Source: Flectonema sp. DT1601
Taxonomy: Eukaryota
Direction: 5' to 3'
NCBI GenBank assembly: GCA_964019425.1
Contig: OZ025790.1
Coordinates: 1,302,001 to 1,366,000 of the forward strand
DNA length: 64,000 bases
Made by a program: the position numbers and the translations under genes. Under the pieces are notes generated by a model. That model did no database searches. It saw only the letters and a program-made list of their open reading frames with translations, and had not been told where the DNA came from. How positions within the stretch are numbered: the first letter of the stretch is position 1; every line of letters begins with the position of its first letter. This document shows positions 23,324-64,000 of the stretch, piece by piece.

Positions 23324-23513
23324 ATACCTTCTCGGCCTTTTGGCTAAGATCAAGTGTAGTATCTGTTCTTATCAGCTTAATATCTGATATGACACCTTGT
23401 GTGTCAACGATATTATAGTAATTTCTTGTTGGGGTGTCGGGTAGCTTGGGGCAACTCAGGTCCGGCACAAGTGTTGCCCTGGAGCTGCACCACATCCAGG
23501 AGTGGCACACCCA
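23324..23513 (+). ncRNA. U2: U2 snRNA copy 1
   Basis: ATACCTTCTCGGCCTTTTGGCTAAGATCAAGTGTAGTATCTGTTCTTATCAG..TAATATCTGATA; canonical GTAGTA branch-pairing sequence; stem IV; T-run. Confidence 0.97.
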
Positions 23514-25059: not shown

Positions 25060-25316
25060 TCAAGTGGAGCTCAATCGGGTGTTGTAATTGAGGGGATGTG
25101 AGCAATATTATCTCATGTCATTTATTTATTTCTCTACTCAATAATGTCAAAGTTTGTTACTGTTTTTACATTAAGAAGATCGTCACATCAATGTTTTAGA
25201 AGCAGATGCTCTCGGGGGGGCAGACGCTTAAGAAGATTGAGAGGAGCAGATCATCACTCCACTTGGGTAGATAATACCACAGTCTGTGATGCTTTTAGAT
25301 AAAAGCATCACCGACG

Positions 25317-28300: not shown

Positions 28301-29219
28301 GCAAGAGACCGTGACCCGACTCGCTGACGGAGAGGCGATACCTGTGCTGCCTGACTATGAGCTCCTGCAGGCAGAATTTGAGAAGGGAACAGCGACGGCG
28401 GAGGCACGTGCTGAGAGGGGGCGGCAGGAGGAGGAGGTTAATGTAGTAAAGAAGCCAGCCGAAGGAACCGAGCCACAAGAGTCAGAAAGCGCCCAACAGG
28501 AAAACAATCTGCTGGAAGACTCGAAGCTTGCAACCAAGACTGGGAGCGATGATGCAACACCGGTGCTGCTGGAGGAAGGGAGTTCCCCTCGAACCGTGTT
28601 GGATGAACAGACGGCGAAGGATCACGCAGGGGACGGCATGCGGCTGCAGCGAGCTGTGTCGTCGGAGACATCAGACTCCGAAATGACATGCATGGACACA
28701 GATGTGACGAATTCGGGCGATGATGACACCTCAACATGCTCGGCACCGTCGGAAGATCCACCTGAGCTGGGAAAGTGTCTGTGTGGAGACAGATGGCTCC
28801 CGAGGAACTTTAGGAGGAGACCCTTGGCTAGTAATGGGTGGTGCAACAGATGCCGCAGGAAGAGACTGAAGGGTACGTTGATGGTAAACTGTAGCAAATG
28901 CGACTTCGACCAATGCTGTGATCTGGCCGCGCTGAAAGCCAAACTCGCCAAGGAGGCGAAAAAGACGAAGACGAAGAGAAGGAGAGCCCATGACAAGGCG
29001 CGGAAGGGACCGGCTGGAGCTGACCGGGACCTTCTGTATCTGAGTAGTACAGACGCGTCGTCGTCGGGTTCGAAGACATTAGGGAACTTTGCGAGAGAGC
29101 TGGTGAGACGGCGGAGTAATAGAGGTAGGCTGCGGAAGCAAGTGTTTGGAAACAAGAGGAGAGTAGGAACAGGGAGCCTAACACGGTCATGCTCAGGTAA
29201 CGAAGAAGACGACGACTAG
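25317..29219 (+). CDS. GC-rich ORF: USP (C19) deubiquitinase + two RNase H1 N-terminal hybrid-binding domains + C-terminal Zn finger; probably mobile-element derived
   Basis: GLENRGDTCYMN Cys box, QQDAHELL, VVHQG..GHY His box, WLHQND; KFYAIANGR..W..FKGF and WYVVSRGRRPGCY.TW; CNRC..CSKCDFDQC; A-runs at about 29252-29277 and 29366-29396. Confidence 0.8.
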   Translation: MESTAGETLAESGAPPPLAGELQLPPAAEINRSVTAIDVKTHRMETLPIHIALREGTLGDEVSLAAEEDAGLQLDEEENKPAVCQIMSPEGGVATGRSTEEIGRRTDLHLKESKIPVTSPGNGCRRTPDTEACFRSLLNPLRMEMLTQLAPPPPSDRNKPTPLRMADYSTLAERLDSADQAGVERGTAPHGCMDVSTCPLDLGRDVEMEDSCQDVPSEKLEGAALDVEMMDPCQDWSDMGVLGPAQNTAEEMGRRQSEKETLVAPSHFERTTPMAKSCLEGLENRGDTCYMNVVSQCLIKGVDLGLGRIRELPHVCDRLCTICILAGIAEGSGRAVSQMVPLGRVMAGLTRRGDGRGQQDAHELLLHLVDDIQRRAGAASPFSRMFACGMVVTTSCARCLNEKSMPQEERGLFVHRAAEIQEALSNLWLSVRVTDYVCDSCGERGHSTRRTELVAAPEILILCVAGRPGALPRIPLSEKVLLEPRDGATWYELGAVVVHQGISGVGHYVSFTCDEEGRWLHQNDRVERTASWREVQASTPHFMLLRRLKGRKAPRRSNSGGDLEPNETALTMPAPGSKVRESAGRFKFYAIANGRNGSGVVTSWGEAEPLVTGLRCAVFKGFNTMVEADAFIRGTDPGHRQATLSGLAQSMEWYVVSRGRRPGCYATWSEASLQVHSFPGGVAKRVEHSQSQRLRGPCSVAYLFFAGMNRAYLLESGGGAMLKQWSFNRLEGAGDPAMLVLMRAVRDILSSCGVLGKLGDVQAYGPLGGWEEGEWTQVEGMVQKASGAGISLKIADLPREVRHSAYEWCYGVPEGIPERKPMVSFPMVEMIPRPALGDRRGRVAEAVRTRPLAITQGPTKRRLGGRSPSDLKKTKSSDPRRDSMDGPAGAPSSHIASDGPPLAEAKETRQQGSDNAQQQNRLQEDPKPGSGRVTPDCEHRTGPEQAETPTGADSQPGRDKPPTESNAEETASAGGIEQQESESTQQEIKVHEDSKQETVTRLADGEAIPVLPDYELLQAEFEKGTATAEARAERGRQEEEVNVVKKPAEGTEPQESESAQQENNLLEDSKLATKTGSDDATPVLLEEGSSPRTVLDEQTAKDHAGDGMRLQRAVSSETSDSEMTCMDTDVTNSGDDDTSTCSAPSEDPPELGKCLCGDRWLPRNFRRRPLASNGWCNRCRRKRLKGTLMVNCSKCDFDQCCDLAALKAKLAKEAKKTKTKRRRAHDKARKGPAGADRDLLYLSSTDASSSGSKTLGNFARELVRRRSNRGRLRKQVFGNKRRVGTGSLTRSCSGNEEDDD

Positions 29220-29397: not shown

Positions 29398-30056
29398 CAA
29401 AACAAAACGTGACCTTGTGAGCCATCATGAGTTATAATTTACTTATCTTTTCTTCGCCATGGCGACGGGTAATCGTGGGACCTGTAAAACCAGCTTAAGA
29501 CTGTTGATGTGGTTTATATTTTTAGCACGCATTCATACATCATAAGGATCGCTGGTTCCGAGGGTTTGCTCTCCCACTTACCTGCCTCTCTATCCCTCAA
29601 AAAAAAAAAATAAAAGATGTGTGTTCGCTCACACATTCTTATCAAGTGTTTACTGGTTGCCATTGACCACCTTTTATTTTTAAAGTGTTCCCATTCCCTG
29701 GCATGGGTAATCACAAAAGCTAAACCCTGCTGATGTCCCTTCCCGAGAGGAAGTCTCCAACAGAAAGAGGCAGACAGTTTAGATACTACGAAGTAGTGAC
29801 CTTGATAGTTTTATAATGCGAGTTAACTTACTTATATTTTCGTTCTTCTTTGCCAGGTGCATACAACGATAGGATGCTAATTATTATTTTTTTTTAATTA
29901 GAGATTTCATGCACCAGTTAATATGAATTTCCTTTTGAAATTTGGGTTTGCATTTAAGAAAGAAGGCTGACAAAGGAAAGAGAGTTTTAATGCGACGAGT
30001 TATCACTTCTGTTCGTCCAGTTAGATTTCTACCTGGTTTTCTTCCTTTTCAAGTTC

Positions 30057-30246
30057 ATACCTTCTCGGCCTTTTGGCTAAGATCAAGTGTAGTATCTGTT
30101 CTTATCAGCTTAATATCTGATATGACACTTTGTGTGTCAACGATATTATAGTAATTTCTTGTTGGGGTGTCGGGTAGCTTGGGGCAACTCAGGTCCGGCA
30201 CAAGTGTTGCCCTGGAGCTGCACCACATCCAGGAGTGGCACACCCA
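30057..30246 (+). ncRNA. U2: U2 snRNA copy 2, lacking the -86/-87 B-box (possibly silent)
   Basis: Matches copy 1 except a C>T change in the stem IIb region; upstream region is degenerate and shortened. Confidence 0.85.
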
Positions 30247-30854
30247 TTTTTAATTAAAGCAGAAGACAAAGTCTCTTTTGAAATTTGAGAAGTTTCAGCA
30301 CCGTGAAGAAGAAAAATCTCTTCTTCACATAGTACTGAATGCTGTGTTTCCCAATTAATTGTGAGGGAAATTTCCCAGATTTGGTTCCGTTGGAGTCACA
30401 ATGGATGGGAAACAGAGCACAGATGTAATGTGGTTGTCGCAGTCAATCTCCATGGAATATTCTACGCTCACAATAACTTCGTGTGTTGTTAAATCTAAGA
30501 AGTACGAAATGTGAGATTTCATACATTGTGACAGGGATTTCTCTACTAGGAGCTTATTGAATCAGCAGTGGCGTTGTCAAAGTCAGTGAAGCCCGTCCTC
30601 TAAATATTAAAGACAGTTGTCATTAGAGAGTGCATCGATTGTGTTTTCGACAGTTGTAGCCATCTTTTTATATTTCGACAACGCTCATGTTTGTTTTGGA
30701 TGTGAGTGATTCAGTACAAACCAACACTATAATGGGATAACAGCAGAAGTCAGCAACAATGAAACGCGGGAAATTGTCGTCTCCGGAAGAATGCATATAA
30801 GATGTGACCGTGTGTCTATCGAGATCAGTTTCAGTAACTAGTTAATTCCTCCTC

Positions 30855-30973
30855 CATATTCTACAACACATATGGGGTTTTATCGATACCATCTTTTCAT
30901 TGGTTTGGCCGAACCCTATATTCGTTTTCAGTTTTAAGTTGCTTTAATTAATCATAATATCAAGTTACCCCCC
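30855..30973 (+). repeat. Dispersed repeat family B, diverged partial copy
   Basis: ccatattc..ggtttggccgaaccctat..tatcaagttacccc shared with the copies at 49630 and 61579. Confidence 0.75.
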
Positions 30974-37634: not shown

Positions 37635-37898
37635 GACTCAACAACTGAATCATAACTTTAGATCCGATTTGTATTATGTTTTTTTGTAACTCAAGAAAAA
37701 GAAAGGTAATTATTCTGACTTCCGCGTGCCAACCCTGCTTACCAGGAACATCGGCTTGTCTACTGAAATGTGTTTTTTAGTTGTCTTCCTTTTTTTGTTT
37801 CTCCCTCTTTTCTTGTATCGCAGTTACTGAGTGTCCAGAGAATGTGTTGCAGCAAACTGCATGCAGAATAATTTCTTTCTTTTCGGCAGTACAATCAA

Positions 37899-37908
37899 GT
37901 TCGAATCC
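37899..37908 (+). promoter_or_regulatory. Extragenic B-box upstream of U3
   Basis: GTTCGAATCC, 86 nt upstream. Confidence 0.7.
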
Positions 37909-37984
37909 CGGTGAAGGCTATAAGTGACTCTCTTTTGGTGATAGGCAGCCCCCTGAACGAAGCTGTGAGGGAGTTTTAGAGATT

Positions 37985-38166
37985 AAGACTGTACTCTACA
38001 CAGGATCTGTTTTTGAGTACATTCGTGTTGGAGTTTACATAACCCAGCACAAGGCCAAAGCTGGATGATGACGTAGACCAGCACTGTGCCGCATGAGCAT
38101 TGCGATGATTGCATACGATGCGTCAAGTTTTACCTTGACAAGCACAGTCTGGTCACTTACAGCTTT
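37985..38166 (+). ncRNA. U3: U3 snoRNA copy 3
   Basis: Matches copy 1 with one substitution seen. Confidence 0.88.
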
Positions 38167-38289
38167 TTTAATAAAATCAACATAAGAAATGTTCCTCGCG
38201 ATGATTCATAAGACATTCGAGAATCCATTGAATTAAGTTCCAAGCTTTCCTGTCCAAAGTCTAGCCAAGATGTCACTTTTATTCATTCA

Positions 38290-38299
38290 GTTCGAATCC
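38290..38299 (+). promoter_or_regulatory. Extragenic B-box upstream of U2
   Basis: GTTCGAATCC, 86 nt upstream. Confidence 0.7.
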
Positions 38300-38375
38300 C
38301 CGTGAAGTATGGTTTTCTTCCTAGAATAAAGGATCCGGCGTCTGCGGGGTAAGTGAAGTTGTTCTTTTCAAGTTC

Positions 38376-38565
38376 ATACCTTCTCGGCCTTTTGGCTAAG
38401 ATCAAGTGTAGTATCTGTTCTTATCAGCTTAATATCTGATATGACACCTTGTGTGTCAACGATATTATAGTAATTTCTTGTTGGGGTGTCGGGTAGCTTG
38501 GGGCAACTCAGGTCCGGCACAAGTGTTGCCCTGGAGCTGCACCACATCCAGGAGTGGCACACCCA
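38376..38565 (+). ncRNA. U2: U2 snRNA copy 3
   Basis: Matches copy 1. Confidence 0.97.
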
Positions 38566-38636
38566 TTTTTAATTAAAGCAGAGATAGTTTATGTCTTGAA
38601 TATACAAGCCATTTTAATCAGAGCAAGCCAGCCCAA

Positions 38637-39998
38637 ATGGATTTGGTAGTAACCCTGCCTGACAGCAGAAGCATCACGATATCCATTTCTCGCAACACTC
38701 TCGTCTGTGATGCAAAGATTTTCATTGCTGAGAATGAAGGTCTGCAGGAGAGTATGTTTGACCTTACCGTGGAAGGCGACGTGCTGGATGAAACGAGAAA
38801 TATTAATTCTTACGGGATTCACGACGCCACTGACGTCGTTGTTGAGGTTTCAAGAAAAGCGATTGCAATAAAGAGGATCGGGTGTGAAGTCACTGCTGCT
38901 CATCTCAAAAATGCAATCAAATCTGGTAATGATATCAGCTTGATAGGAGAATACTTTTACGCAGGTATATCAATCAACGAAAACCTAGGATCGCGAAAGA
39001 CGCCCTTGTTTCATGCTGCAAAATGTGGAAACCGTGACTTGTGCGCTTTACTACTAGATATACCCGGTATTGATCCAAAGGTAACAAGCGAAGGTGGTTT
39101 AACTGCGTTTTCTGCTGCTGTTGAAAATAATCATTTGGAAGTTGTGAAATTGTTTTTGAATAAAGATAATCTGGATTTTGGCAACGATGGTGACAATGGT
39201 CAGAATTCATTTCTTACTGCTTGTGAAAATGGAAATCTTGAAATGGTCAAGCTACTGTGGGAATACTGCTTCAGTAAAACTGGTTGGAAACAACAAGATG
39301 GAATGTGTAATCCATACCTTTCTTGTTGCAAAAGCCTTCGTCCTTTCGAAACATTAAAATACCTGGTCTCTATAGAGTCTCTTCATCATTGTATAAACGC
39401 ACTTCACAGAGGGGGTACGGCTCTGCATCTGGCCTGTACAAGTTTCAATGATGACGAAGGACAGTTAATCGATTTATTGTTGCAAATACCCGACATAAAT
39501 CCAGATATTGTAAACGAGTCGTTTGGATTCACTGCTCTGATTTTTCTGTGCGGCAGTGGATCATCTCTTGAGAAAGTTAAGAAATTAGTAGAGTTCGGAG
39601 CAGATGTAAACATACAAACCAATCAAGGTAAACAGACTGCTTTACTAGAAGCAGTTCGAGTTGGTGAGTTGGATATTGTCAAATATCTTTGTGATCATCG
39701 TGACATAGACAGGTCCGCAGTATCCAACACAGGATTGTCTGCAATCTGCATTGCTGCTCTGAGAAATGACATTCCTGTTATGTCTTGTCTCACTTCGTAT
39801 GGCGACTTAAATATAAATGCTTCCGATGAATATGGGAGAACTCCGTTGCAAATATCATGTGGTTATAGCCAATTAGAAGCAGTGCAGAAATTAGTTGAAC
39901 ATCCAAATGTTGATATCAACACTCGAGACATTTTCGGAACCACTCCTCTTTTGAGTCTGTTGCTTGGAAGTGAATCTGTGAGGAAGATCCAGCATTAG
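38637..39998 (+). CDS. Ubiquitin-like domain + ankyrin repeat protein
   Basis: MDLVVTLPDSRSITI..LTVEGDVLDE..INSYGI Ubl; ankyrin repeats TPLFHAAKCG, TALHLAC, GRTPLQISC. Confidence 0.88.
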   Translation: MDLVVTLPDSRSITISISRNTLVCDAKIFIAENEGLQESMFDLTVEGDVLDETRNINSYGIHDATDVVVEVSRKAIAIKRIGCEVTAAHLKNAIKSGNDISLIGEYFYAGISINENLGSRKTPLFHAAKCGNRDLCALLLDIPGIDPKVTSEGGLTAFSAAVENNHLEVVKLFLNKDNLDFGNDGDNGQNSFLTACENGNLEMVKLLWEYCFSKTGWKQQDGMCNPYLSCCKSLRPFETLKYLVSIESLHHCINALHRGGTALHLACTSFNDDEGQLIDLLLQIPDINPDIVNESFGFTALIFLCGSGSSLEKVKKLVEFGADVNIQTNQGKQTALLEAVRVGELDIVKYLCDHRDIDRSAVSNTGLSAICIAALRNDIPVMSCLTSYGDLNINASDEYGRTPLQISCGYSQLEAVQKLVEHPNVDINTRDIFGTTPLLSLLLGSESVRKIQH

Positions 39999-40012
39999 AC
40001 GCCGATCGTCAG

Positions 40013-40022
40013 GTTCGATTCC
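40013..40022 (+). promoter_or_regulatory. Extragenic B-box upstream of U1
   Basis: GTTCGATTCC, 87 nt upstream. Confidence 0.7.
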
Positions 40023-40099
40023 GGGTCGAAGCATGATAAACTAGCTGGTTCTGAAATTGTCGGCCTCCTGGAAAGCTTCTGAAGGATATTTTGAGAAGT

Positions 40100-40260
40100 A
40101 CATACCTGATTGGTGTCTGGCCTGATCACGTAGGGTGCCGACATAACAACGGTCCTTGCATTGCACTTCGCTTGGAACGTTGTTAGGGGGCTGGTTTCGG
40201 CTGGCTTCCCACAATGAAATTTTTGGTAGCGGTGGTGCTGCGCTTGCGCAAACCCACCTT
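40100..40260 (+). ncRNA. U1: U1 snRNA copy 3
   Basis: Matches copy 1. Confidence 0.92.
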
Positions 40261-41195
40261 ATTTTTTTAAAATTAGAATACTTCTGTGTGTGTATTGTGT
40301 GAATGACGGACCTCATCTTATGCGAAGCCCTCATCTTATGCGAAGCCCTTATTTATCTCATTGTTGATATCTGCCTACGACCTTAATCTTAGAATCTTTA
40401 TTTTCAGCACAAGAAATATGGGTAACACACATGCAATCAAGGCTGCTGCAGTGTGCAATCAATTCATAGAGATCCGCACTCAGGCAGGAGAAGTATATCT
40501 GATTAACGCAACCCATATTACTCAGGTTTGTTCTTTACCTTCTTCTCAGACTCGTACGTTTCATTCGCATTAAAAAAAATCATATCAGGTGACAAGAACA
40601 CCGGAATGCGTTAAAATAGTAGTAACAGGTGGGAGAGATCATGAGATAATGTACCAAGTATGGATTTATTTGTATCAGAATATCAGACGAAAAACTCTGT
40701 TCCTCTTTTTTTAAATAAACAAAAATTCTCAGATTCATAAAGAGTGTTATCCTCAAGTGGTGGAGGCGATAGCAGCAGCTATGGGCCCGCTTAAAGAATA
40801 AGTAGAATGTTGATATGGCAACGATTCTCTCTGTTTGAAGTACACCCATATATACAGCAACTTGATGCTGGCTCTTTTTCGCTCAAAAAAGTTCTTCTCA
40901 TGAAGTCAGTAGTTGGATATTTCTGGGATGTGTTCGGCTTGTGACATATTCAGCCTTAGCAAACAAAGGTATTCTATCTTCGATCTTGCTCCAAAATCTT
41001 GTTCATTTTCTTTTTTTTTTTGATGGACTCCCTTGACTGAGTTGCGTATTTGGAAAAAAAAATGGAAACTTAAATATTAGTTTTTTAACAGTTTTTCAGA
41101 GAGACGGTAGGAGATGTTTGTAATTTAACGACATTAGTTTAAATCATCTCTCACAGGAGAAAAAACAAAAAAACAAAAACAACCGAAACTATAAA

Positions 41196-47790: not shown

Positions 47791-49629
47791 GTTCTTTTCG
47801 AGGCTACAGATTTCTTGATCTGTGAAGAAAGTAACAAAAAAAAATAATCCTTACGAGGGTGTCAGTACTATCACTATTGTATTAGGGAACCCAAAGAGCT
47901 TTACTCACATTTGGTGACCTGTTGGACACTTTTTTTTTTTTTTTTTTTTTAAAAAAAATTGGCCGATCTAACAACGTATTAGGCTATTGTCTGAATGGGT
48001 TGCTGTTTTTGATCGGTTGGTTTTTTTTTTTTTTTTTTTTTTTTTTCTCTACGTGTTTTTTATTAAAACAGATTAATTAGCCATCGCAAGTGTTGGTAGA
48101 TTCCGGTGGTCTTCGGAAGTTTTTAAACTCCCCTGACTTCGATAAATAGGAAAAAAAAATTCTTAATAACCGTGTTAATGTTTCTTTCTCCTCCTGCAGA
48201 GTTTTCGTTTTTTTTTTTCATTTTTTTTTTTTTGGAGTTTTTTTAATGTACAGTGCTACTACACCAAAAAAAAAAACAGAAAAGTTATTTTTTTCGTGCA
48301 GAGTTTTTTACTTTTCTTGTGTTCAACAACTGAAAAAAACAGAAAAGTCTGTTTTTCTCGCATAAACTTTTTCAATGACGACAAACATGTGATTTGGTTC
48401 CTCTCTTAAAGGTTTTTTTTATTTGTTTTTTAATTATTTTTTATAAAACAATTTTAAAACCAAATAATCACTTTTTCTCTGGGCCTTTATTTAAATGCGA
48501 CAAGTTAATATTTTCCGTAATTTCTTTTTTTTTTTTTGGAAGTAATTAATTTGGTTAATATGCATTGAGGCGTTGAGGGAGAGTGATGGCTGACCTCCTT
48601 TTTTTTTTTTTTTTGTTTTTTTTTTGTTTTTTTTTTGTTTTCATAATTTACACGTTAAAGGGAACCCTCTCCCTCTTTCTGCAGATTTGTATTCTAACGC
48701 CAAACTTGTTTCCAAATGAGGAAAAACTTCTTCATTAGTAGACGAGTACTGTCTTGCGCACATTGCTTTTTTTTTTTTTCTCTTCTTTTTTTCCCCACCA
48801 TAAATTTATCCAAGCATTCTACACTGTTACAGGTAGCAATTTGCCCCAGGTCCCTCCTCCTTCCCGAACCTTTATTCAACGACATGTGTGGGATTTTATC
48901 GATACTAATTGTTGGTTTTTTTTTTACATGGCAAGCAGGCCGGTTTCAAGTTGCTTAACTGCGGCTACCCTCTGCCCTGGTCTGCTACGGAATCCCCGCA
49001 TTCGACTGAAATCTCATAGTTACTTCAAAAGACTGAGTAAAGCATCACACCTAGTCAATCTATCTGAAACTAATGTTAAGTTAATGTTGTTTTACGATAT
49101 AATACATTTGTATTTTACGTACGAAATCGAACAGTTAACCCCGCTGACAGTCAAGATTGTCGAAGAAATTGTTGTTCCTTTTGAGCTTAAGAATGCAGTA
49201 TCAAATTACCCTCTGAATCCCCGTATTCGGTTGAATAATCTTGTTGTCTCATTACTCAAATCCTTTCTGAGCAAAAAAAAAAATTATAAAAAGAATGTTA
49301 TTATTGCTGTTCCTCTTCGACAACGATTTCTTAGATACGAACACTTGTTTACTTTAGTTACGTACCATACATATCGTAGCCACTTGTGGGTTTTATCATA
49401 ACAAGCAGGTTTGGCTTTATATCTAATCACAGTATCAAAGTATCCCACCTGACAGTACGGTTTCTGGTCGATAAGAGAATACATTTTTTCCCCCTCCTTT
49501 TTTTTATGTTTTTTCGAACCTTTTCTCTGATTAACAACAACAAAAACATTTTTTCAGTCGAGTACTTTGATATTAATTTTTGTTTTAATACCTAAAGTTG
49601 TTACTGTTTTTACATTGTAAAAGTTTCAC

Positions 49630-49803
49630 GGCATGGGGCGTTCAACCTGTAGTACGTGGCCCCCGAATCCCCATATTCGACAGCACGTATGGGATTTTCA
49701 GCTGTTGGTGTCTTTTCATTGCAACCAGGTTTGGCCGAACCCTATTCTCGTTTTAGGCAGTTTCAAGTTACTTTCCATTTAATAATAGTATCAAGTTACC
49801 CCC
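49630..49803 (+). repeat. Dispersed repeat family B (about 180 bp)
   Basis: Close match to 61579-61762. Confidence 0.88.
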
Positions 49804-51846: not shown

Positions 51847-51959
51847 TTTTGTTTTGTGTCACGAAAACCCGTGAACCGACTTTAAACTGATAAAGCTAAA
51901 GGAGGTTTACGTGCTGCCAACATTCTTTTTTTCGTTCTTAAGCAATACTTGTTTAAGTG
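51847..51959 (-). repeat. Dispersed repeat family A, reverse copy
   Basis: Reverse complement of about 13696-13806. Confidence 0.85.
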
Positions 51960-52454
51960 TGAAAACATTTTTTCTCTTTTTTTTACACCGACAAAAATAT
52001 TTATTAATGTCAAATGTTATCTATTTCTCTGGGAAGTATTGCAGTCTGCGATCAACAAAATATTTTAGTTTATCTGTATTTTTATCAATTGACCCTATCG
52101 CAGGGTTGCTGAATGAATTTTTTTTTTTTTTTAAATTGATTCGAAGAAAGAACAACATTCTGTTATGGTTTTTATTTTATTGAGTTGCTATTAAAAAAAA
52201 AAAAACTCTCATTGTATTGTTGCTAAAAGCACTGATTCTTTTCTTACAACAGGAAATCAAAAAAGATGAGTAAATCTAATTAATTACTTACAAACGTTTA
52301 ATTTTTATTTTAATTCTCAGCTCGTTAAAAAGTATTAATTTATTTTTTTATCGTCAACAAACAGTGAGAAACGGGGGAGAAGAGAAAAAAAAAAAAAAAA
52401 AAAAAAAAAACGGAAAAAAACTGAAAAAAAAAAAAATATAACAACAAAAGAGGA

Positions 52455-55194
52455 ATGAAAAGACGAAAATGGAGCACCACGAGGATAGTTGCTGTGCTGC
52501 TCCTTCAGACTGTTGGTTCCCTAGCCGTAGATCTGTTAGTGTCATCTCCTGGAACTAAGGGAAGGGTATCTCGATATCGTAACGGAGGAGTATTAGTTGA
52601 ATACTGGAGTGAATCTGAAAAAGTCTGCACCAGTTATATTCTTGTACCCGCAGAGAGTATGTGGCATCCTATATTGAGAACAATCCTGTACTTTATGGGA
52701 TTAGTTTATTTATTTATGGGGATAGCAATACTCGCTGATGTGTTTATGATGAGCATCGAGAGAATAACTGCAGACAAGATAAAAACTATCATCGATGATG
52801 GGGGAGTTCCTTGCAAAGTTCGTGTGACAGTCTGGAATGCGACGGTTGCGAATCTAACTCTGATGGCTTTAGGTTCGAGTGCTCCTGAAGTCTTACTCTC
52901 AGTAATTGAAGCTGTCGGTACTCTTGATTCCCGACCAGGTGAACTCGGACCGTCAACAATTGTTGGATCCGCTGCTTTCAATCTTTTAGTAATTTCAGCT
53001 ATTTGCGTCATCGCTGTTAAAGAACCAAAGAGAATATCTGAACTCGGGGTATTCTTATTGACTGCTACAGCATCACTACTCGCATACGTATGGCTCATTG
53101 TTACTCTTTCGATATGGACACCCTGTGAGATAACAATCACAGAGGGTGTATTGACTTTATTAATGTTTCCGTTATTAGTAGGGGTTGCGTATCTTCAAGA
53201 CCGTGGATGGTGTAAAAAGAAATCAACTGTGAGAAGAGCGAGTAGGGTTGTGAGTGCTGAGATAATTAGACAGGAGAGTACTAGAAGGTCAAGCAAAGCA
53301 AAGCAAATATGGAATTTATTAAAAAGTCCGGGGAAGTCAGAAAACAGCGAACTCCAGTCGGAGGGATCATTCGGAATGAGGGCGACGAATCCTTTAGCGA
53401 GTGAGGGGTTTACAGAGTTGAGTAAAATCGCAACAGGAAGTCCTCCTCCGTCACCGAATCGGACGACTTCTATTCATAAAATCAAAAGAAGTAAACCATC
53501 TGATGTTTCTGGTATCAAGTTCTCAGATAGTACTAACCAACCTCAACATCAACAAGTAGTTCTCGAATGGGAAATGCAACACTACACTCTCGAACCTGAC
53601 AACATGACTGTTGTCCTTGGTCTGATCAGACACGGTCCTGACGATACTACCGTCACTGCAAAATATGAAACCCAACCCGCAACAGCTAAAAAAGACATCG
53701 ACTACGCTGTTTCAACTGGACACATAATAGTAGAAAAAGGTAGGAATAGAGGACACTTGAAAATAAATATACTGAGGAGTGTGGCAGAGGTTTGTTCGTT
53801 TCTTCAAAAAAAAAAAAACAACACAACACAACACAACACACACACACAAAAACACATCACTAAACACAGACTCTTACATTCATAGTAACGCTGCAATCTG
53901 CAGGTGGAGGAGCTATACTGGGTCACATTATTCAAACAACTGTTTGCATTGCTGCTGTTCAGGCTGAACTTTGCTTCGTTCCTGTTTGGTTTCCGTTTTA
54001 TAATTATCCATCAATCGTGAGAGGAATTATCTGTCTTGAGGTGGGTGAGAATGCGAAAGTGGTATGTTAACCTTTTAATATTTTGGATGCAAACTTCCAG
54101 ACGAGAGGGATCGTTTATCCTTTCTAAAAAACACCACACGGCTAAGCTAATTATCACTATTCAAAACTACTAATCAACAGGTCCCGATTGTAGTCGGCCG
54201 CAGTGGATCTCTGAATGAAAGATCTGTGTGTTTGGTGAAGACTGTCGCAGTTACCGCTGAGAGGGACACCGATTTCATTGTTTTTGAGAGGGAATTAGTT
54301 TTTACAAAAGGAGTCAGAACTATCACTACGATGCTTCAGTTAATTGACACGAAATCATTTGAGAAAAGAAAGCTACTTGAGGTCCGTCTTGGTAGCATTG
54401 AGGGTTCTAGAATTGCTCAGGCAAGTAGCTTAAATGTTATCATCACGGAGGATTCACAAGCAAAAACAATCGTAGATAGAGTTATTGAGAATTTACCTTC
54501 CATTTCAGCTCAAGACTTAACACGGTCGTCGTGGTCAGGTCGATTTCGTAGTGCGATTGCTATTCAAAGTGGTTTGTCATCGTTGGAGTATGCGACTTAC
54601 TTATCGACGTTGTTTTGGAGGGTTATTTCAGCTTTTATTCCTCCGGTTCATTATGCTGGTGGATGGTTTACTTTTATTGTTGCGTTGATTTTCATTGGAA
54701 TGGTCACTGCCGTTGTTGCTGAGCTTGCTGGGCTTTTTGGATGCGTCATTGGACTTCGTGATCCTGTCACGGCAATCACATTTGTTGCTTTGGGAACATC
54801 TCTACCAGACACACACGCTTCAAAAACCGTCGCTGAAGAAGAAGATACTGCAGACTCAGCGATTGGAAACATTACAGGTTCAAACTGTGTTAATGTTTTC
54901 CTTGGTCTAGGAATACCTTGGTTCATAGCATCCATATATAAAAGTACAAAGGGAGAGAGATACACCTATCCTGCTGGTGATCTTGTTTATACAGTAGCGT
55001 TGTATCTCTGTTGTTCTATAATTGGTATTGGTCTTCTACTAACTAATCGATATGTTTATGGAGGTGAGTTGGGAGGTCCTAAGAGATATGTCGTCGCATT
55101 GTTCTTAATTTTGTTGTGGATATTCTACGTCGTTATGTCATCGCTTAAGGTCTATGGTCATATCGGAACTATTAAAAAACCTGGTGATTGTTGA
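52455..55194 (+). CDS. NCX: Na+/Ca2+ exchanger with Calx-beta domains; exons 52455-53789, 53870-54061, 54181-55194
   Basis: Alpha-1 NLTLMALGSSAPE..IVGSAAFN; alpha-2 FVALGTSLPD..GNITGSN; both introns keep the frame. Confidence 0.92.
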
Positions 55195-55199
55195 GATTT

Positions 55200-55230
<31 letters not shown>

Positions 55231-55237
55231 CCAATAT

Positions 55238-55412
55238 GCATTTAACAAGTACTGTTTAAGAACGAAAAAAAGAATGTTGGGCAGCACATGTAAACCTCCT
55301 TTAGCTTTATCAGTTTAAAAGTCGGTTTACGGGGTTTTTTCGTGACGCGAACAAAATACATCAACGAAGTTGTTATATTACTGTATTTTTGTATAGTTTA
55401 AGATAAAGCCAA
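55238..55412 (+). repeat. Dispersed repeat family A
   Basis: Close match to 13696-13848. Confidence 0.85.
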
Positions 55413-56289
55413 TTCTTTTTTTACCCGCTCCCCTTAGTTATGTTATTTGAAAAAAACTTTTTGTATTCACTTGGAAAACTCCTTTACAGGAGTTTTTTTT
55501 TCTTTTTTTCTTTCTTTTTTCTGTTCATTATACACATATTACCCTTTGGCCAAAAAAATTGGCCAAGCTTCGCTTTTCTTTTTTTTACTTTTTTTTTTCC
55601 TCAACACTTTTTGTTTTGTTTTGTGCGTTACCAGGGGTTCAAAATCCTAATGAAGACGTGTTAGTTCGCTGAACGTTCTCTTTCTACCGAAAACAATTGT
55701 GTTTTTGTAGGCATAAAGAAAAGGAAAACAAAAAAAAATTTTTTTTTAAGCTAAGGAGGAATTCTTTATTTCTCGTTACCCAATATTTATGCTCTTGTTT
55801 GCGAGCATTATTCTCTTCTTTGAGCTTAATTTTTTTTTTAATTTTCTTTTGTGGTTTGCTGACTCTACTAGAGAGGCAACGGTTGTCAGGAGTTCAATTA
55901 GGTTCACCTTCACAGGTTAACTTTTTATTTATTTATTTTTCTGACCTTTGGTTGTACTTATTTACCCCTCCTACTCTTCCTTTTTCTCTTCTCCCCCTTT
56001 TCCGTGTTTTTACGGTTTTCTTGTTTTAGGAAGCTACTGCCTTGAAGTGAGAAGAAGGGGGGAAGGTGAGTAGTTTTTTTTTAAATTTTTATTTTTATTA
56101 TTCCTTTGTAAGCTAATCGGAGATCAACTGAAAGCTAATTCGGTGTTTTGAAACAGCTCATCGACAGGGGGGGTACTTTGTGTAGTCATTCCTGACTACA
56201 TTTAATGGAAATAAAAGAAGTATTCTAACTCGGCTGTTGTTGTTGTTATCGTAACTCATCTTCAGAAAAAAAACAAAAATAAAAAAAAA

Positions 56290-57387
56290 ATGAAGAGGGC
56301 AATGTCAGCATGTATTCAGAGAGCAGGAAAGGGGCTCGATTACCAATTCGCTAGTGACAACACCACTGGGTGTCATAGTCAAGTCATGGAGGCAATGCAA
56401 ATGGCGAATTCTGTTTCCGCTCCACCATACGGTGATTGTGAATTCTCAAAAACAGCATCGACCATGTTGAAAACAGAATTAGGATTGAAAGAGGACGATG
56501 CCCATGTCAGATTTGTTGCTTCCGGAACAGGTGGTAATGTCCTGTGCTTGTCAATGGCATGTTCGAGACCCTATCACAGCATTATTGTATCAGAATGTGC
56601 GCATGTTGCAAACTATACCGTCGGAGTTTGTGAAAACATAATAGGATGCAAAGTTAACATCATAAATGAGAATAAGATAACTGCTCCGCTCTTAAACAAA
56701 CTACTAGAGAGTAGTGCTGTATACCCGGAGTACTCAAGCATTCCAAAGGTTGTGTCTCTCACTCAACCAACTGAATACGGTGATGTTTATACCATACAAG
56801 AAATGAATGAAATAAAAGAAATTGCGAAGAAATTTAATATTTTTATTCATGTTGATGGAGCAAGGATTGCCAGTGCTTGTGTTGCATTGTCAGAGCAAAT
56901 GAACAAACCGTCTGAGGATATATTAAAAGAGATTTGTGAGATTGCTGACCTGGTCACCTTTGGAGGTGCTAAGAATGGTCTTGGAACAGTAGAGGCTGTC
57001 GTTATTAAAAAGAATGTTTGCGAATCAATCATTGAAGTCAAGGCTGCTATGAAGCAAATCGGATTAGTTGTTTCCAAAACAAGATTATTATCAAGTCAGT
57101 TTATCGCATATTTATCTGATAAGCTGTGGCTAAGTAGTGCTGAAGCTTCTCACAAAGCTGCTTTAAACCTCTTCAGGCTGATTGAATCGAAAACCATTAA
57201 ATCCTCACCACCCGTAACTAATCAACTGTTTGTGACGATATCGAAATCTCAACTTACGTCTTTGCAGACAAAGTTTGCAGTTTATCCTTGGGGAGATGAA
57301 ACAGAGGATGGAAATATTCCTATTAGAATAGTTACGTCGTGGAATACTAGTGAGGAAGCGTGTAGTCAGTTCTGTGATTTACTGTAA
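56290..57387 (+). CDS. ltaE: Low-specificity L-threonine aldolase
   Basis: FASDN, SGTGGN, TQPTEYG, HVDGARI, and PLP lysine in GGAKNG. Confidence 0.88.
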   Translation: MKRAMSACIQRAGKGLDYQFASDNTTGCHSQVMEAMQMANSVSAPPYGDCEFSKTASTMLKTELGLKEDDAHVRFVASGTGGNVLCLSMACSRPYHSIIVSECAHVANYTVGVCENIIGCKVNIINENKITAPLLNKLLESSAVYPEYSSIPKVVSLTQPTEYGDVYTIQEMNEIKEIAKKFNIFIHVDGARIASACVALSEQMNKPSEDILKEICEIADLVTFGGAKNGLGTVEAVVIKKNVCESIIEVKAAMKQIGLVVSKTRLLSSQFIAYLSDKLWLSSAEASHKAALNLFRLIESKTIKSSPPVTNQLFVTISKSQLTSLQTKFAVYPWGDETEDGNIPIRIVTSWNTSEEACSQFCDLL

Positions 57388-57539
57388 GTGGTTCTTATCA
57401 AAATATTGAAAAACAAATAAAATAACAGAAGAAACCCCCCGCGTGCTGTGGTTTCCTTATTAACACAATTCGTGTACTTAGATCTCTGTTTGTATATCTG
57501 TCTGTCTGCTTTCGTATTATTTTTATCTTCAATGCAGAT

Positions 57540-58214
57540 ATGCTGTTCTTGAATACAATAAAATGGTTTTGTGTTTCTCAAGTACCAGTTGAGGATGCGG
57601 GTTCGTCATCGTCGGGTTCATTTACTGGAGTTCAGGGATGGAAGGATCATCATACCGTGTGGGTTGGAATTTTAGTAGCATCGCTGTGTGGATGTATCAT
57701 TTGTGGAAATCTTTATAAATGGAGAAAGGAAAAGAAATTACGAATAAGTCATTTGCACACCGATGCTGCGAAGTTGTTGGGTGATGAGATTCAATCTGGT
57801 GCCGCTTTAGCGAAAGATGTCGCAAAACTTGCGAAACTAGACGAAGTTGCGAGAGTGACAGGAATCACTCAAGGAGCTCATCTATTAGCTGGAGCTGCTC
57901 GTAAAGTAATCCGAAAAGATAGCATTAGTGGACTTGCTGTTGAAGATATCCAACTTCCAATCATACCTGACTTCGCAGATGACGAAGAGAAGGCCGCCAT
58001 CATCGAAGAACTGATCACAAAAAGACGTTATCCTGTAATTAAAGAAGACAGTGATGAAGACGATTCCACGACTGTCGTTTCAGTACTTCCTACTTCTAGA
58101 GTCTCAGCTGGTCGAGGTAATATTATGTTTCCACCTGTTCCTCCAACAGTTTCATCTTCTGTTAAGGCGAAGCCTCTTGTAACTGCCATGAAGACAGTCC
58201 GTGTTGTGACTTAG
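57540..58214 (+). CDS. Single-pass membrane hypothetical protein
   Basis: 224-aa ORF with TM segment VWVGILVASLCGCIICG. Confidence 0.6.
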   Translation: MLFLNTIKWFCVSQVPVEDAGSSSSGSFTGVQGWKDHHTVWVGILVASLCGCIICGNLYKWRKEKKLRISHLHTDAAKLLGDEIQSGAALAKDVAKLAKLDEVARVTGITQGAHLLAGAARKVIRKDSISGLAVEDIQLPIIPDFADDEEKAAIIEELITKRRYPVIKEDSDEDDSTTVVSVLPTSRVSAGRGNIMFPPVPPTVSSSVKAKPLVTAMKTVRVVT

Positions 58215-58522
58215 TAGTATTTATCAAATTGGGAGAGTAGTGTCCCTGTCCAAGTTTTCGTGGTGCTATCGCGGTGCTGTTATTAGATTTAATTAAATAA
58301 TAATACTGCGTTCATACCCGAAGACTGTGGACCCTACTACTCTAGTCTCGGCTAGTCGAGGTAACATTATGTTTCCACCTGTTCCTCCAACAGTTTCATC
58401 TTCTGTTAAGCGAAGCCTCTTGTAACTGCCATGAAGACAGTCCGTGTTGTGACTTAGTAGTATTTATCAAATTGGGAGAGTAGTGTCCCTGTCCAAGTTT
58501 TCGTGGAGAGAAGACTGTGGAC
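58090..58522 (+). repeat. Tandem duplication of the 3' end of the preceding gene
   Basis: About 58090-58332 is repeated at about 58334-58522 with an internal deletion and a 1-nt indel. Confidence 0.9.
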
Positions 58523-58698
58523 ACGGTAGTAAGAAAAGAAATATAAACCCCACACTCACTCCATTCACTCTTCTCGTCTAAAAGAATGATTTTTTTAGAC
58601 CCAGATGGTTTTCTGTGAGGGGGGTTTTTTATCACGTTTACCTTGACTAGTGTCAAAAAGCTCTCTTTTCGTTCATCGTTTTTTCCCCCCCCGCAGTA

Positions 58699-61380
58699 AT
58701 GTGCAAAGCTTATTATTGTGAGCTATTGAAAAATGAAATGGAAAGTTACGAACAAGTAGAAAATGTATTAACAGACGGGTTAATGAAAACAAATAAGGAA
58801 CTCAAATTTCCAAAAATCACTGGCGCAGTGCCGTACTTATATGGGATTTTTAAACTGCATAAGATCCCAGACATCCGCCTTAGATGGATTGCAGGTACTT
58901 CTGTCAACTGTGAAACTTTGATTGAGGAAACGAATGAACCTGACAAAGAGACTGACGAATCAAAGAAGGTGACCAATACAAGAGAGAGAGTTTTTCGATC
59001 CAATGTAATGACACACGCTCAACAAGAACTTACTGGAATTATTAAGTTAATACTGCTCACACTAAAATCAAAGGACCATATGGAATATGTAAAGACTGGT
59101 GTTAGAAAATATTTTATTGTTGACTCAGTAGATGAGGTAATACAACGGATTAAATCCAACTACCCTGAATTTTTAAAATACGCTGAACCCAAAACTTATG
59201 ACTTCACCACCATGTACAGCAACCTGAAGCATAAGGTACTTAAACGAAATTGCAAAGAAGCAGTAGATGAAGCTTTTAGATTTTCCGGTAAGAAACATAT
59301 TGCACGAAATAGCAGAGCACGTGGAAAGTCCAAGACTTTCTTTTTCACAGACGGAGTTGATGCAAACACAAAGGAATACACTTCCGAAATGATTGGTAAA
59401 CTAATTGACATGTGTATCGACTATTCTTTAATCCAACCGATTGGTAGTCATCAATGCTACCGTCAAACGAAAGGGATACCCATGGGTGGTAATGCCTCCC
59501 CGCTTCTAGCTAACTTGTATTGTTATGCAGTTGAGAAGAAATTTATAGAACAGTCAACTCTGGAAATTGCGAAGTCACATACTTTAACAGTAAGATATAT
59601 TGATGATTTTTTATGCTGGGGGACAAAACCACCGCCGCAAAAGATGTACGGCATGGACTACAAAGATACCTCCCTAGATAGTAATGATGTGGTGTTTCTT
59701 GGTGCACGGATACGGGTCGAGGAAGACATTGCAAGGGAAGAAGTGAAAGTGAAAAAGAAATTTATTCGTCTCTCCGTTCATCGGAAAGAGTGGAACTTCA
59801 AACCTTTACAGTACGTGCATGCAGACTCCACGATGCCTGATTCCATACCCAAAGGTATAGTTAAAGGAGCGATGTATAGAGCCAGCATGATTTGTAACAA
59901 CCTCTCTGACCTACTAATAGAGTTTGAATGGATAATTTATCGGATGATTACTAGAAAATTTAAAAAGCATCACATATCAACCGGCTACAAGGAATTTTGT
60001 GACGAATTCTATGAAGAATATCCTTTTGTCAATAAAAGATGCATCAATCTTTTCTACCGGATCCTTGAAGGCTTGAAGAAAGATTATTACTACCCGACTG
60101 GTGAAAGAAACTATATAACGTACCCGCCCATCGAAAAAGATGAAATTGAAACCGACAGAACAGCTGTCCTAGTTCAAAAATTGTCATCCCCTACCAATTC
60201 GGATGCCAAGGTGAATCTGGGACATTTGGACGAGTTGGTTTCTTATTTTACGTTTCGGGATATGAAAACTCTACTAGAAACTATGGACTGGGACTTAACA
60301 ATACCCTCGGTAAACACAGCAGGTAATTGTTTCTTTGAATCTATGGCACTAATAATTTGTCAAAATGGAGTCATAAACGCTGAATGGGTACGTAGAGTTA
60401 TACATCGTAGACTGACTTTAAAGAAGGCGCAATACCAAAGTTTTGTAGACACAGATTATGAAAAATTCACAGAAGATGTACTTGACAGTAATACATATAC
60501 AGATCATGTGTATATTCAAGCTTTCTTAGATGAAATGGGTTGTTCTTTAATACTAATCACTATTAATAGCGTGCAGGAAAAAAGTTTACGATGGATTTCC
60601 CCAGCCAGTACACAAGATACATATTTTTGGGGTACGATCGGTGTAATGGCGTACCATACTACTTCTGAGCACTATATGCCAATTTTACCGAGAAGTCACG
60701 GAAAACAATGCACCATATTTACTATGTCGCAATGGAATTATGAGGCTTTCATGAATTTAATAGTACCTGAATTAGCGAAAATGTGTCCTAATTTTGTCGA
60801 CGCTGATACTCTTCTATCGAAAGCGGGTGCCACTATGAACCTTTTAACCTTCGACAACGTTAATTATGATGTTTACGAACTGTTGCATTACTGGTACTTC
60901 GATGAGATCAAAATGAAAGCAGCCACAACAATGTCAAGTTGCTCAGATTTAACCTCAGAAACCGTATCTGTGACCTCTTCCGATTCATCTTCCTCAACTA
61001 CTTCCTCAAGTTCTAATACGATTGATGAAGAGCTAGTTGTGGATGTACTTATTAATTTATTAGAAGATTCAGACATTCTAATCTTTAAAGAAGAGCTCCA
61101 CTTATGTCCAGCAAGACACAACCTGAAATTTGCGAAGGTAAGTAGTAATATGTACTGTAATATCTGTGATCGCAACATGCCACAAACCACTTATAATCTT
61201 GCATTCCAATGTAGACAAAAAGACTGTGATTATGATGTTTGTTTGAGTTGTTTGGGATTATTCATCTGTACTGCGTGTGGTGCCACGGAATCTCAGGCCG
61301 GAAGACAATTTAATTTACGAGGCTTAAGATCACACCAAACTCATTGTACAGTCTTTCGAGAGCAAAGCGAACGTAGTTAA
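58699..61380 (+). mobile_element. Penelope-like (Naiad/Chlamys-type motifs) reverse transcriptase fused to an OTU deubiquitinase and Zn fingers
   Basis: PYLYGIFKLHK..RWIA, TYDFTTMY, QTKGIPMGGNASPLLANLY, RYIDD, FLG, PLE thumb; OTU AGNCFFES..EHY; CPARH..CNIC..C..CDYDVCLSC and CTAC..H..HC. Confidence 0.88.
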
Positions 61381-61578
61381 TTATCACTCGCAGCAAAGTA
61401 TTGCGAGATGTGCTCCACTGGTAGTGTGCTACGAACCAGAAATAATTTATATTTTATTTTTATTCTTTATTTCTTTTATTATTTTTGCAAAAATAGTTTT
61501 CTTTTTTTAATTTTCCTTTAATATTTATTTACCTTTGAAGTGTGAAGGAATACTATTTTAAGCTGTAACGGGCTACAG

Positions 61579-61762
61579 GGCATGGGGTGCTCAACCTGTA
61601 GTACGTGGCCCCCGAATCCCCATATTCGACAGCACATATGGGATTTTCTATCGATACCAACTGTTGATTTCTTATATTGCAACCAGGTTTGGCCGAACCC
61701 TATTCTCGTTTTTGCCAGTTTCAAGTTGCTTTCCATTTAATATTAGTATCAAGTTACCCCCC
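61579..61762 (+). repeat. Dispersed repeat family B
   Basis: Close match to 49630-49803. Confidence 0.88.
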
Positions 61763-64000
61763 TTTTTTTTTTTTTTTTTTTCATTCTGAATTTTATCTGG
61801 AAAAAAAAAAAAAAAGAATTTATAATGACCATATTATTAGTATCTGTTCCTTTGCTTTTTTAATTGTTTATTCTCATTAGTTTTTTTTTTTTCCTGTTTT
61901 TTTTTGTTTCATAGACGAGGTGGATAACTGGGAAATTCCTTCCAGCCAAAGCTATGAGTAATTTCTGGGTGTGGGTTACCCTTGATATAGGACCCTGATC
62001 ATCCGCAGTTGCCAACAAGTGATTAATTTCAGCTTGGAAGTGAAAATGGTTATAATTGTTTTTCTCTCTCTATTTCTTTTTTGAAAATCATAAAACAAAT
62101 AACAATAGCCGTGGGGGGGGGGGGTGTAGTGACGAGAGATCTCACTATTTTTTTGTACAAATAAATTCCTTCTTTTCTTTTTTGTATTTAACAACGAGTA
62201 GTTGCAATAATCTAAAAAAAAGAACGTTTGGGAACATCACGTAGACCTCCTTCAGCTTCTATCTATCCGTCGTGGGTTTCTGTTTCGTGAAACAAGCGAA
62301 AAGAAGAAAACACAACCGACTCTCTGCTTACAGATAATACTATATTGTTTTTTTGTCTCTCTCTCTATTTCTGTTTAGAATCATACAGCGAGTATTAGCT
62401 GCGGTTCTTGTACAGCAATCCTCTTGAGAAGTGGATACTAATGTGCTGCTGACTACCCCATAGAAGTGAACAAATTCAAAGCACTTCCAAAGGGACAAAA
62501 TTAGCTAAAATACGGAAGGCTAGTCCTCCCCGATGTGTGGCTTGTGAGGAGGGTCTGCTCATCCTTTTTTTACTTTTGGAGCAGGTATGAGAATCTTTCT
62601 TTTCCTCCTTTTATTTCCAATCCCGTCACCCTCGGGTGATGAGAGAATAGAGGTAAGAGGAAAATAGGTTACTCTTGAAACCTAAATAGTTACTTCAAAA
62701 GACTCCTCGACAGATGTTAAATTATCGGGCAGTTGTTTTAATGTGATCCAAGACAGTTGGGGCATTTCTTGATTTACATTTGTGACGGCTAGATGGAGTG
62801 GAGTGTAGCGAGGGAATAGCACTTTGCCACATACCAGCTGTTGGCTGTAAATGCAGGTTATCACGTTTCCTTTTTGTTTTAAAATTTTTATATCAATTTG
62901 ACTTCACGGCAGTTTGTTTAGAACATGCGATTTTGTGTGGACGGAATCCAGTTATAATGATTCATGTCTAATTTGTTGAGTGTTAACCCTTGATTTATTT
63001 ATCCAAGTTCCCCCCCGCCGCTTCCTGGAGTTCGTTATAGTTTAGTTTTTTAGTTATTAATTTAAGTACTCATGAGTTTCATAAGAAAAAAACTGTTACT
63101 GGTAACATTGGCAGGTAGTGTTCAACTACTGTTCACGGCCTCCAGTGACATTATTTATTAAAAAGCATCTTCAATGATGCAATCGAGAGATTACCTTGTT
63201 CTTAATTACCCATTACAAGATGGGCTTTTCCGTTTTGGTTTTTTTTTTTTTTTTTTTTTCTCTCCATCTCGAAGACATGTTGCGTAACGTTACTTTTTAT
63301 AGTTCTGTTTTTTGATTGTCGCACAAAATGTGAGAATTTTTTTTTTTTTTTTTTTTTTGAATTTAATAAGTGTTGTAAGATCTAACAAGAACGTAAACGT
63401 CCTTGTTATCGGTTTGTTGTAAATCGGTTTCATGAACAAAACAAAACCCATGAACGAGTGTTATATGTTTTCTGTACGGTTTTGTAATTAGAGTTCAGTT
63501 CTTAAAAACTGTATTTATAAATACCATTGAGATATCAAAAATCTCCAAAAAAAAAAAAAAAAAAAAAATTGTGTTGTTTGTTTTGTATTATTTATTATTT
63601 ATTAGTTTTTTTTTTTTTTTTTGATTGATGTGACCTGGTTCTTTTTTTGTTTTCCAAGTCAACATTATCAAAAGGTTGTTGTTTTTAAACAAAATATATA
63701 TGAGGCGGTGCAGAAACCCCCCCCCCAATTTTTACCAGGCTATTCTGTGGGCACCTAATACCCAATCCGAGCTCACCACCCCACGAAAATACTATCCAAA
63801 AAACTCAAATCCGGTACTGGGGCATCCTCTAACTGCTCACCAGTTTCAAAATTCTATATTTTTTGACTGTTTCTGGTACTTTTGCCTTGTGTCTCTGTTG
63901 GTTGCCCTCAAAATACTCAAAAACCAGCTTAGCAGCTACATTGCAGAAATTTGTTTACACCTGGGTTCCTATGAAGACTGGAATGATAGGAACAGGAGAA

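Follow-up and report, generated by a model that had tools for sequence, protein, structure and literature searches.

Chlamys elements are Penelope-like elements (PLEs) that Craig et al. 2021 (PMC8557442) describe as having a single open reading frame (ORF) with an N-terminal GIY-YIG endonuclease without CCHH, a CxC linker, a DK motif, and a reverse transcriptase (RT), and as showing frequent 5' truncation, reported (C)n targets, and no hammerhead. The element analyzed here is like Chlamys in these features. The Chlamys-1/-4/-6_cBra elements of Chara braunii also have a C-terminal Josephin-like domain and a Cys/His-rich motif (PMC8557442), whereas our family has an OTU domain rather than Josephin, KKT2-CL-like and C2HC fingers, and another host, probably a diplonemid. 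Naiad elements share the permuted endonuclease-RT order, the CxC, and the DKA motif, but their endonuclease has a CCHH and a CxxC finger (PMC8557442), and the full-length protein of our family, P0027, has neither. The main text of PMC8557442 has no mention of OTU, ubiquitin, peptidase, euglenids, or diplonemids, and its supplement has none of OTU, UCH, peptidase, ubiquitin, or Diplonema.

Proteases of this kind are found on other mobile elements. In Dualen/RandI elements, the RT polyprotein includes a cysteine protease of the deubiquitinase class, Josephin (PMC8557442), as that of the element here does with its own protease, but they are a non-LTR clade and their protease has a different fold. 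Ginger1, Helitron/Helentron, and Mutator show a likeness in their swappable OTU, Ulp1, or VTD protease at the C terminus (PMC2836005, PMC9741609), but these are DNA transposons. The Helitron VTDs, which belong to another deubiquitinase class, show activity in vitro, and the OTU domains of those DNA transposons had yet to be assayed as of PMC9741609. A Trichomonas transposase with a C19 peptidase has been described along with the OTU and Ulp1 domains of Ginger1, Helitron, and Mutator (PMC2836005). Ubiquitin-type proteases on mobile elements, and Josephin on Chlamys, are already known, and what draws interest here is the exchange of proteases across the clade, along with the CL-like finger. Our searches of openly available papers found no OTU, USP, or Ulp1 on a PLE and no PLEs in diplonemids; "Penelope" is absent from the consulted main text of the D. 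papillatum genome paper (PMC10161547), and no Penelope is reported in the consulted part of a trypanosomatid survey (PMC12278014).

The window copy and its full-length family

The window, a 64,000-nucleotide stretch of DNA, carries an intact 893-amino-acid (aa) ORF (P0001) at 58699..61380 on the plus strand, and this frame is free of stops in the raw DNA. The RT core and thumb occupy 58699..60110 (+), with CKAYY, KLHK, YDF, GIPMG, and YIDD (59596-59607) motifs at the places given in a first-pass annotation of the sequence, and the Pfam RVT_1 match is weak (E 1.2e-5, below the curated cut-off). The spacing between motifs A and B, relevant to an insertion in the fingers domain (IFD), is 88, versus 83-85 in the Naiad-type rows compared. 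The RT profile gave weak matches to PDB sequences, with TERT absent among them.

All 893 residues of the ORF are identical to residues 536-1428 of P0027, a 1428-aa protein found on three contigs, and by tblastn the identity covers residues 534-1428 (58693-61377). The 90% cluster of the window protein has 29 members, and at least two of the 15 listed (P0027 and P0034) are 1428 aa long. Pfam matches a GIY-YIG domain at the N terminus of P0027, P0034, and P0037 (E 0.002-0.005); in P0027, it lies at residues 101-196 (E 0.002, under the Pfam cut-off), and the R, H, E, and N positions of the endonuclease are present by eye. P0027 has no CxxC between GIY and YIG, and CCHH is absent; the Naiad-type rows show the CxxC. 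A CxC (CPC) follows at 403 and VDKA at 526, with DKA at 527, and the window copy breaks off seven residues past the D of DKA. The GIY-YIG, CxC, and DKA parts of P0027 are thus absent from the window copy, which bears out an earlier suspicion of 5' truncation, and because the break has removed the nuclease, the window copy is not autonomous. Nested 5' truncations also occur among the cluster members.

The first-pass annotation had described an RT without an endonuclease; this holds for the window copy alone and fails for the family, in which the full-length proteins P0027 and P0034 have the N-terminal GIY-YIG. The longer copies whose search it proposed therefore exist, as 1428-aa proteins with this domain. 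Its placement of the RT in the Naiad/Chlamys type agrees with the N-terminal GIY-YIG, CxC, and DKA of the family and with the permuted architecture of all database relatives in our trees where complete. An endonuclease-less lineage of the Athena/Coprina (EN-deficient PLE) type is ruled out by the endonuclease of full-length members together with the lack of a hammerhead, and Naiad membership is contradicted by the lack of CCHH in the endonuclease. The identity of 100% to a full-length element points to an insertion that is very recent and speaks against domestication. By its sequence, the window copy is a young, 5'-truncated copy of a multicopy Chlamys-type PLE.

We also looked for the ends of this copy. 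The 5'-truncated copy spans 58693..61762 (+), with a putative 3' limit. Identity to P0027 by tblastn begins at 58693, directly 3' of a C8 run (58685..58692, +) that is preceded by a T tract and is likely both the target site and the left half of a duplicated C-run. A likely 3' untranslated region (UTR) at 61381..61756 (+) is followed by a C6 run (61757..61762, +), the likely 3' junction, where the homology of three window copies stops. The stretch 61576-61762 is repeated in the window at 49627-49803, at 30854-30973, and in part at 1755-1802, all on the plus strand, and 61576-61756 has an end point, at the C-run, that is common to the three long window copies. The first two repeats are short older copies of the element 3' end: 49627..49803 (+, 88%) ends in a C5 run and 30854..30973 (+, 75%) in a C6 run. 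We infer that 61756 is likely the 3' end of the window copy and that the C-run is the target, which is in line with the (C)n preference of Chlamys, whose microsatellite targets are (C)n or (CA)n; this repeat could instead be a separate short element. The chance of a C6 run within 400 nucleotides (nt) is about 6%, and the evidence for the 3' end and the target comes from a single window. Among truncated cluster members with at least four foreign residues, leaving out D. papillatum rows, poly-Pro ends the foreign N terminus in 4 of 9 (3/3 in two OTU families and 0/5 in two Josephin-like families). A preference for C-runs rests on few junctions, and both inferred ends of the window copy have them.

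A suggested check for hammerheads came out negative for the window copy, with the core pattern absent from both strands of 58301-62000 and no Rfam match in 55000-64000. Hairpins in the 3' UTR were no better than shuffles (z 0.35, -0.79, -0.36, and -1.80), and there was no pseudo-LTR or partial tandem at the window copy. A 175-nt direct repeat (58089-58263/58333-58506) was rejected as a pseudo-LTR since it lacks a match to the element 3' end. The 177-bp insert at 58333-58509 is a 96% copy of the nearby 58089-58263, has its source in the 3' end of a 262-aa ORF without a Pfam match (57426-58214, +), and lies between perfect 13-bp direct repeats (58320-58332 and 58510-58522). It may be a retroposed or templated insertion with target duplication.

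The OTU domain recurs outside this cluster. Two families that are 55% alike in the RT both have it, showing that it belongs to the element lineage, and the RT-OTU fusion, which the first-pass annotation had wanted confirmed in other copies, is present as the same RT-OTU-finger protein on separate contigs and in the second family. Contigs of equal length recur across the clusters of P0001, P0002, P0013, P0014, and P0016, so a single assembly appears to contain both OTU families along with three families whose tail is Josephin-like; the tail of the latter three matches Josephin with a profile-profile probability of 87% (E 5e-6), compared with 0.1-0.3% for OTU, USP, and Ulp1. Among named relatives, the closest come from Diplonema papillatum, a "Rhum" transcriptome, and Lacrimia lanifica. 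With the mostly one-sided orientation of the window ORFs given below, this makes a diplonemid or another euglenozoan a likely host. Searches of metagenome contigs with P0027 and of viral contigs with A6 found no locus.

Database labels of these relatives read hypothetical or host ubiquitin hydrolases, and further D. papillatum records are named "Ubiquitin carboxyl-terminal hydrolase 26." Several D. papillatum models (P0003-P0005, P0008, P0010, P0136, P0286, and P0298) join an RT-USP element to host genes for kinesin, dynein, TPR, UNC93, calpain, and V-ATPase, with MFS also seen; these fusions are probably intronic insertions read into the gene model.

The remainder of the window holds other genes and repeats. 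A 1306-aa ORF at 25299-29219 (+), with a GC content of 0.595 (about 0.40 in its neighbors) and a GC3 of 0.66, encodes an intact-looking USP, two RNase H1 N-terminal (Cauli_VI) domains, and a C-terminal CxxC...CxxCDFDxC that is ZZ/CL finger-like by eye. From these features, it looks like a second mobile-element-borne deubiquitinase. Ubiquitin-like domains are fused to BspA-type leucine-rich repeats at 23935-25059 and to ankyrin repeats at 38577-39998, an alpha-N-acetylglucosaminidase is fused to an SRCR domain at 6040-10185, and a Na/Ca exchanger with Calx-beta at 52425-55194 is in two ORFs parted by a gap of about 265 nt. Three interspersed repeat families, 78-99% alike, lie at 4894-5549, 21918-22523, 37895-38193, and 40007-40268; at 23231-23544, 30045-30278, and 38283-38582; and at 13684-13858, 51847-51956, and 55220-55422.

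The OTU domain and the zinc fingers

The OTU domain lies at 60286..60696 (+), and its GNCFF (60322-60336) and EHY (60667-60675) motifs are where they had been placed, with Cys544 at 60328-60330 and His658 at 60670-60672. Pfam gave no OTU match when the whole 893-aa protein was scanned. The isolated domain matched positions 2-128 of the 128-position profile (E 7e-4, 20.5 bits versus a cut-off of 23.3), and the OTU domain of the sister family is above the cut-off (28.9 bits). A profile of the two families matched OTUD5 among PDB sequences at 2e-5, and the ESM Atlas assigned OTU at 0.93 (189/256 features). A structure model with a pLDDT of 83 matched OTUD3 (Foldseek E 5e-8, Z 17.6, root mean square deviation of 2.8 Å over 137 residues); its alignment took in four canonical OTUs of related elements, which pulls it towards the OTU fold, and modeling from just the two families (392 aa, 4 rows) gave a pLDDT of 33. 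The isolated-domain, Atlas, profile, and model results all support the fold.

An OTU domain usually has a DGxC loop and an Asp or Asn two residues after the His, as seen also in the other element OTUs. The G-x-C and the His (C544 and H658) are invariant across six element OTUs. The window OTU lacks the Asp of the loop, with Ala or Phe before GNC, and the His+2 residue in the two families is Met or Phe, not Asp/Asn. In an A20-type arrangement, the third triad residue could lie elsewhere. Identity between the sister families is 25% in the OTU domain versus 55% in the RT, and both keep the Cys and His. The Cys is intact in every member spanning it except P0040. A region search with residues 505-893 found the query alone among 3914 candidates, and a profile built from the remaining four element OTUs did not find the window OTU, which is consistent with a separate capture. 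The window OTU is quite probably an active isopeptidase.

A Ser/Thr-rich linker, read from sequence, lies at 60930..61020 (+), ahead of the two fingers. The earlier reading of a ZZ/C1-like finger and a C2HC finger is upheld by a C1_2 match (E 2e-4), a match to the KKT2 central domain (6TLY), and the C2HC pattern. The first is a two-zinc finger like the KKT2 CL or a circularly permuted ZZ (61105..61251, +), with candidate ligands C803, H807, C820, C823, C838, C843, C848, and C851 and with Asp846 (61234-61236, +) aligned with the invariant Asp of KKT2. The C2HC finger follows at 61267..61347 (+); its pattern occurs in 10 of 166 proteins. It is also found in USP-bearing relatives, so it may predate the exchange of USP for OTU discussed below.

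The sole PDB sequence match of residues 800-893 is the central domain of Bodo KKT2 (6TLY, E 3.7e-5, 63-residue alignment). The ligands of TbKKT2 are C576, H580, C597, C600, C616, and C619, with an invariant D622 (PMC8178753), and C803, H807, C820, C823, C838, C843, and D846 of the window protein have the TbKKT2 ligand/D622 spacing. The region is thus like the KKT2/KKT3 central domain in having a CL-type two-zinc finger and then a classical finger, in ligand spacing, and in Asp position (6TLY; PMC8178753). It differs in that KKT2 is a host kinetochore kinase, whereas the likeness here is that 63-residue alignment and the Asp is not retained in the sister family, which has Asn at the D846 position in 8/8 members showing the motif. 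According to bioRxiv 10.64898/2026.08.13.744621, CL is a permuted ZZ domain that uses D622 to bind the free H3 N terminus, and even a D-to-E change abolishes H3 binding by KKT2. The Asn of the sister family weakens a conserved H3-reading role. All ESM Atlas matches on the first finger are below 0.9; one cluster (0.78) has zf-KKT2_KKT3 in 35% and RING in 39% of its members.

The protease slot across relatives

The RT search returned 1327 representatives at E<=0.001, and the following figures rest on the 150 listed. More than 270 residues follow YxDD in 49 of these; the remaining 101 have short tails, are fragments, or escaped the pattern. Among the matches listed, 22 of the 49 long-tailed relatives have a protease at Pfam E<=0.05, of which 16 pass the curated cut-offs, divided into USP (9), Josephin (8), OTU (4), and Ulp1 (1), and the other 27 tails have no Pfam protease match. 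The Naiad-type relatives P0118 and P0124 carry USP. Other tail domains that stood out among the matches listed were DnaJ, PHD, and C2H2 only, with PHD fingers in the tail of P0277, and no further enzyme family did. By eye, the tails of P0159 and P0275 are Ulp1-like and that of P0220 is OTU-like; all three were missed by Pfam, so the protease count may be an underestimate. In raw metagenome DNA, 5 of 27 loci have the RT and a whole USP in a single frame, a sixth has a split USP, another has the RT and a Ulp1-like domain in different frames, and none (0/27) has OTU or Josephin with the RT.

Of 164 candidates, 133 entered an RT tree, with 31 dropped for short coverage, and we built an IQ-TREE subset of 44 rows that leaves out seven short or near-duplicate labeled rows. 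These trees hold database relatives, without published PLE, Naiad, Chlamys, or TERT sequences, and the root on Naiad-type rows is assumed; a last homolog search gave eight long proteins, none of them a named anchor from green algae or animals. In the subset, the window OTU family and its sister form a pair with 100% support inside a 98%-supported clade of 16 rows, 10 of them USP and 3 weak Josephin. The five protease labels need 10 changes on the tree, with a minimum of 4. AU tests, run after the tree was seen, rejected a single clade for the six OTU rows (p-AU 5e-44), for the twelve USP rows (9e-5), and for ten Chlamys-type USP rows (3e-4), a group defined from the tree. P0206, which pairs OTU with a J-domain, belongs to an OTU clade other than that of the window family. 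One side of the 133-row tree has 55 rows, of which 53 are without a protease label; together with the 27 unmatched long tails, this indicates that many relatives thrive without a protease.

Given the assumed root, the simplest reading of the tree is that OTU replaced USP in the window lineage. Such a replacement in the same slot would point to selection on isopeptidase activity and not on one fold. PLEs with four protease classes in one slot likely arm themselves repeatedly against the host ubiquitin system.

Possible roles of the OTU and finger module

From what is known of the family, the GIY-YIG nuclease would nick the target at a (C)n/(G)n run, and the RT would copy the RNA from its 3' end by target-primed reverse transcription. 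RNA ending in C's could pair with the nicked G-run as a primer; in an anole PLE, however, priming proceeds without homology of this kind (PMC11167929). Reverse transcription of the window copy would have stopped early, just after the DKA motif. On the rooting assumed for the tree, an ancestor of the window lineage would have had USP in the slot, and OTU would have taken its place. We think it probable that this young truncated Chlamys-type PLE belongs to a family whose protein combines GIY-YIG, RT, OTU, and two fingers and in which the OTU domain is the element's own deubiquitinase, protecting its protein or insertion complex. The OTU would mainly shield the element protein or ribonucleoprotein from ubiquitin-dependent removal, the most likely substrate on our estimate even if short of an even chance, and the fingers would serve as chromatin or substrate tethers.

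The main rival is that the OTU edits chromatin or repair factors at the target. It draws on the fingers: the KKT2 central domain is the only PDB match of that region and has the CL and classical fingers in the same order, the first ligand pair is C-x3-H as in C576/H580 of TbKKT2, and Asp846 is at the place of D622. PHD fingers occur in other relatives (P0277; PMC8557442), and Bao et al. (PMC2836005) proposed a DNA-repair role for transposon OTU and Ulp1 domains. However, the sister family has Asn where KKT2 loses binding even with Glu, the finger-containing model has a pLDDT of 33 with Atlas matches under 0.9, ZZ domains bind other N termini too, and the window copy is in a gene array and not in an obvious centromere. 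The fullest form of this rival would have a PLE C-terminal anti-ubiquitin slot refilled often (USP, Josephin, OTU, or Ulp1) and here filled by OTU coupled to a CL finger of the KKT2 type able to read the free H3 N terminus, so that the element would have a chromatin-reading module in common with the kinetoplastid kinetochore and would deubiquitinate its own landing site. We regard this as unlikely.

The OTU domain might instead be a captured module that is catalytically weak or dead and has a ubiquitin-binding or spacer role only. Its divergent loop (Ala/Phe before GNC), the missing Asp/Asn after the His, the low OTU identity between sisters relative to the RT, and its isolation from the profile of the other four OTUs and in the region search fit this idea. 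We find it doubtful, and more so than the landing-site reading, since both families have kept the Cys and His despite change in three quarters of the domain, P0040 is the sole member spanning the Cys in which it is not intact, and four protease classes recur in the slot.

The annotation had also raised a domesticated RT-DUB gene, and a co-opted host gene could use the AG at 58695-58696 for trans-splicing to make a nuclease-free RT-OTU protein. The copy is sense to the gene array, in which 23 of the 26 window ORFs of at least 200 aa are on the plus strand (the other three lie inside one plus-strand ORF), its frame is intact, and this AG is the first after a pyrimidine tract and two bases before the in-frame ATG; the tract and CAG may serve as a splice acceptor. 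But both the ATG and the CAG preceding it belong to the coding sequence of the element (A534-V535-M536 of P0027), and the 100% identity to a full-length element leaves no time for host-gene selection. With 29 cluster members in addition, domestication is contradicted, and we consider a host gene very improbable. An assembly or gene-calling chimera of the RT and a host OTU gene would recall the D. papillatum models joining this RT family to unrelated host genes, but it can be practically dismissed because separate contigs and a second family carry the RT-OTU-finger protein too, and here it lies in one stop-free frame.

The preferred reading, an element that carries its own protective deubiquitinase, extends Chlamys-type PLEs to diplonemids and shows that four classes of ubiquitin/Ubl protease were captured convergently within a single clade of retroelements. 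Such capture points to ubiquitin- or SUMO-based restriction of retrotransposition, an idea that lends itself to direct testing, since the domains are small and soluble and the element is young and apparently active. If H3 binding by the finger is like that of KKT2, retroelement targeting would be tied to the unexplained origin of the kinetoplastid CL domain.
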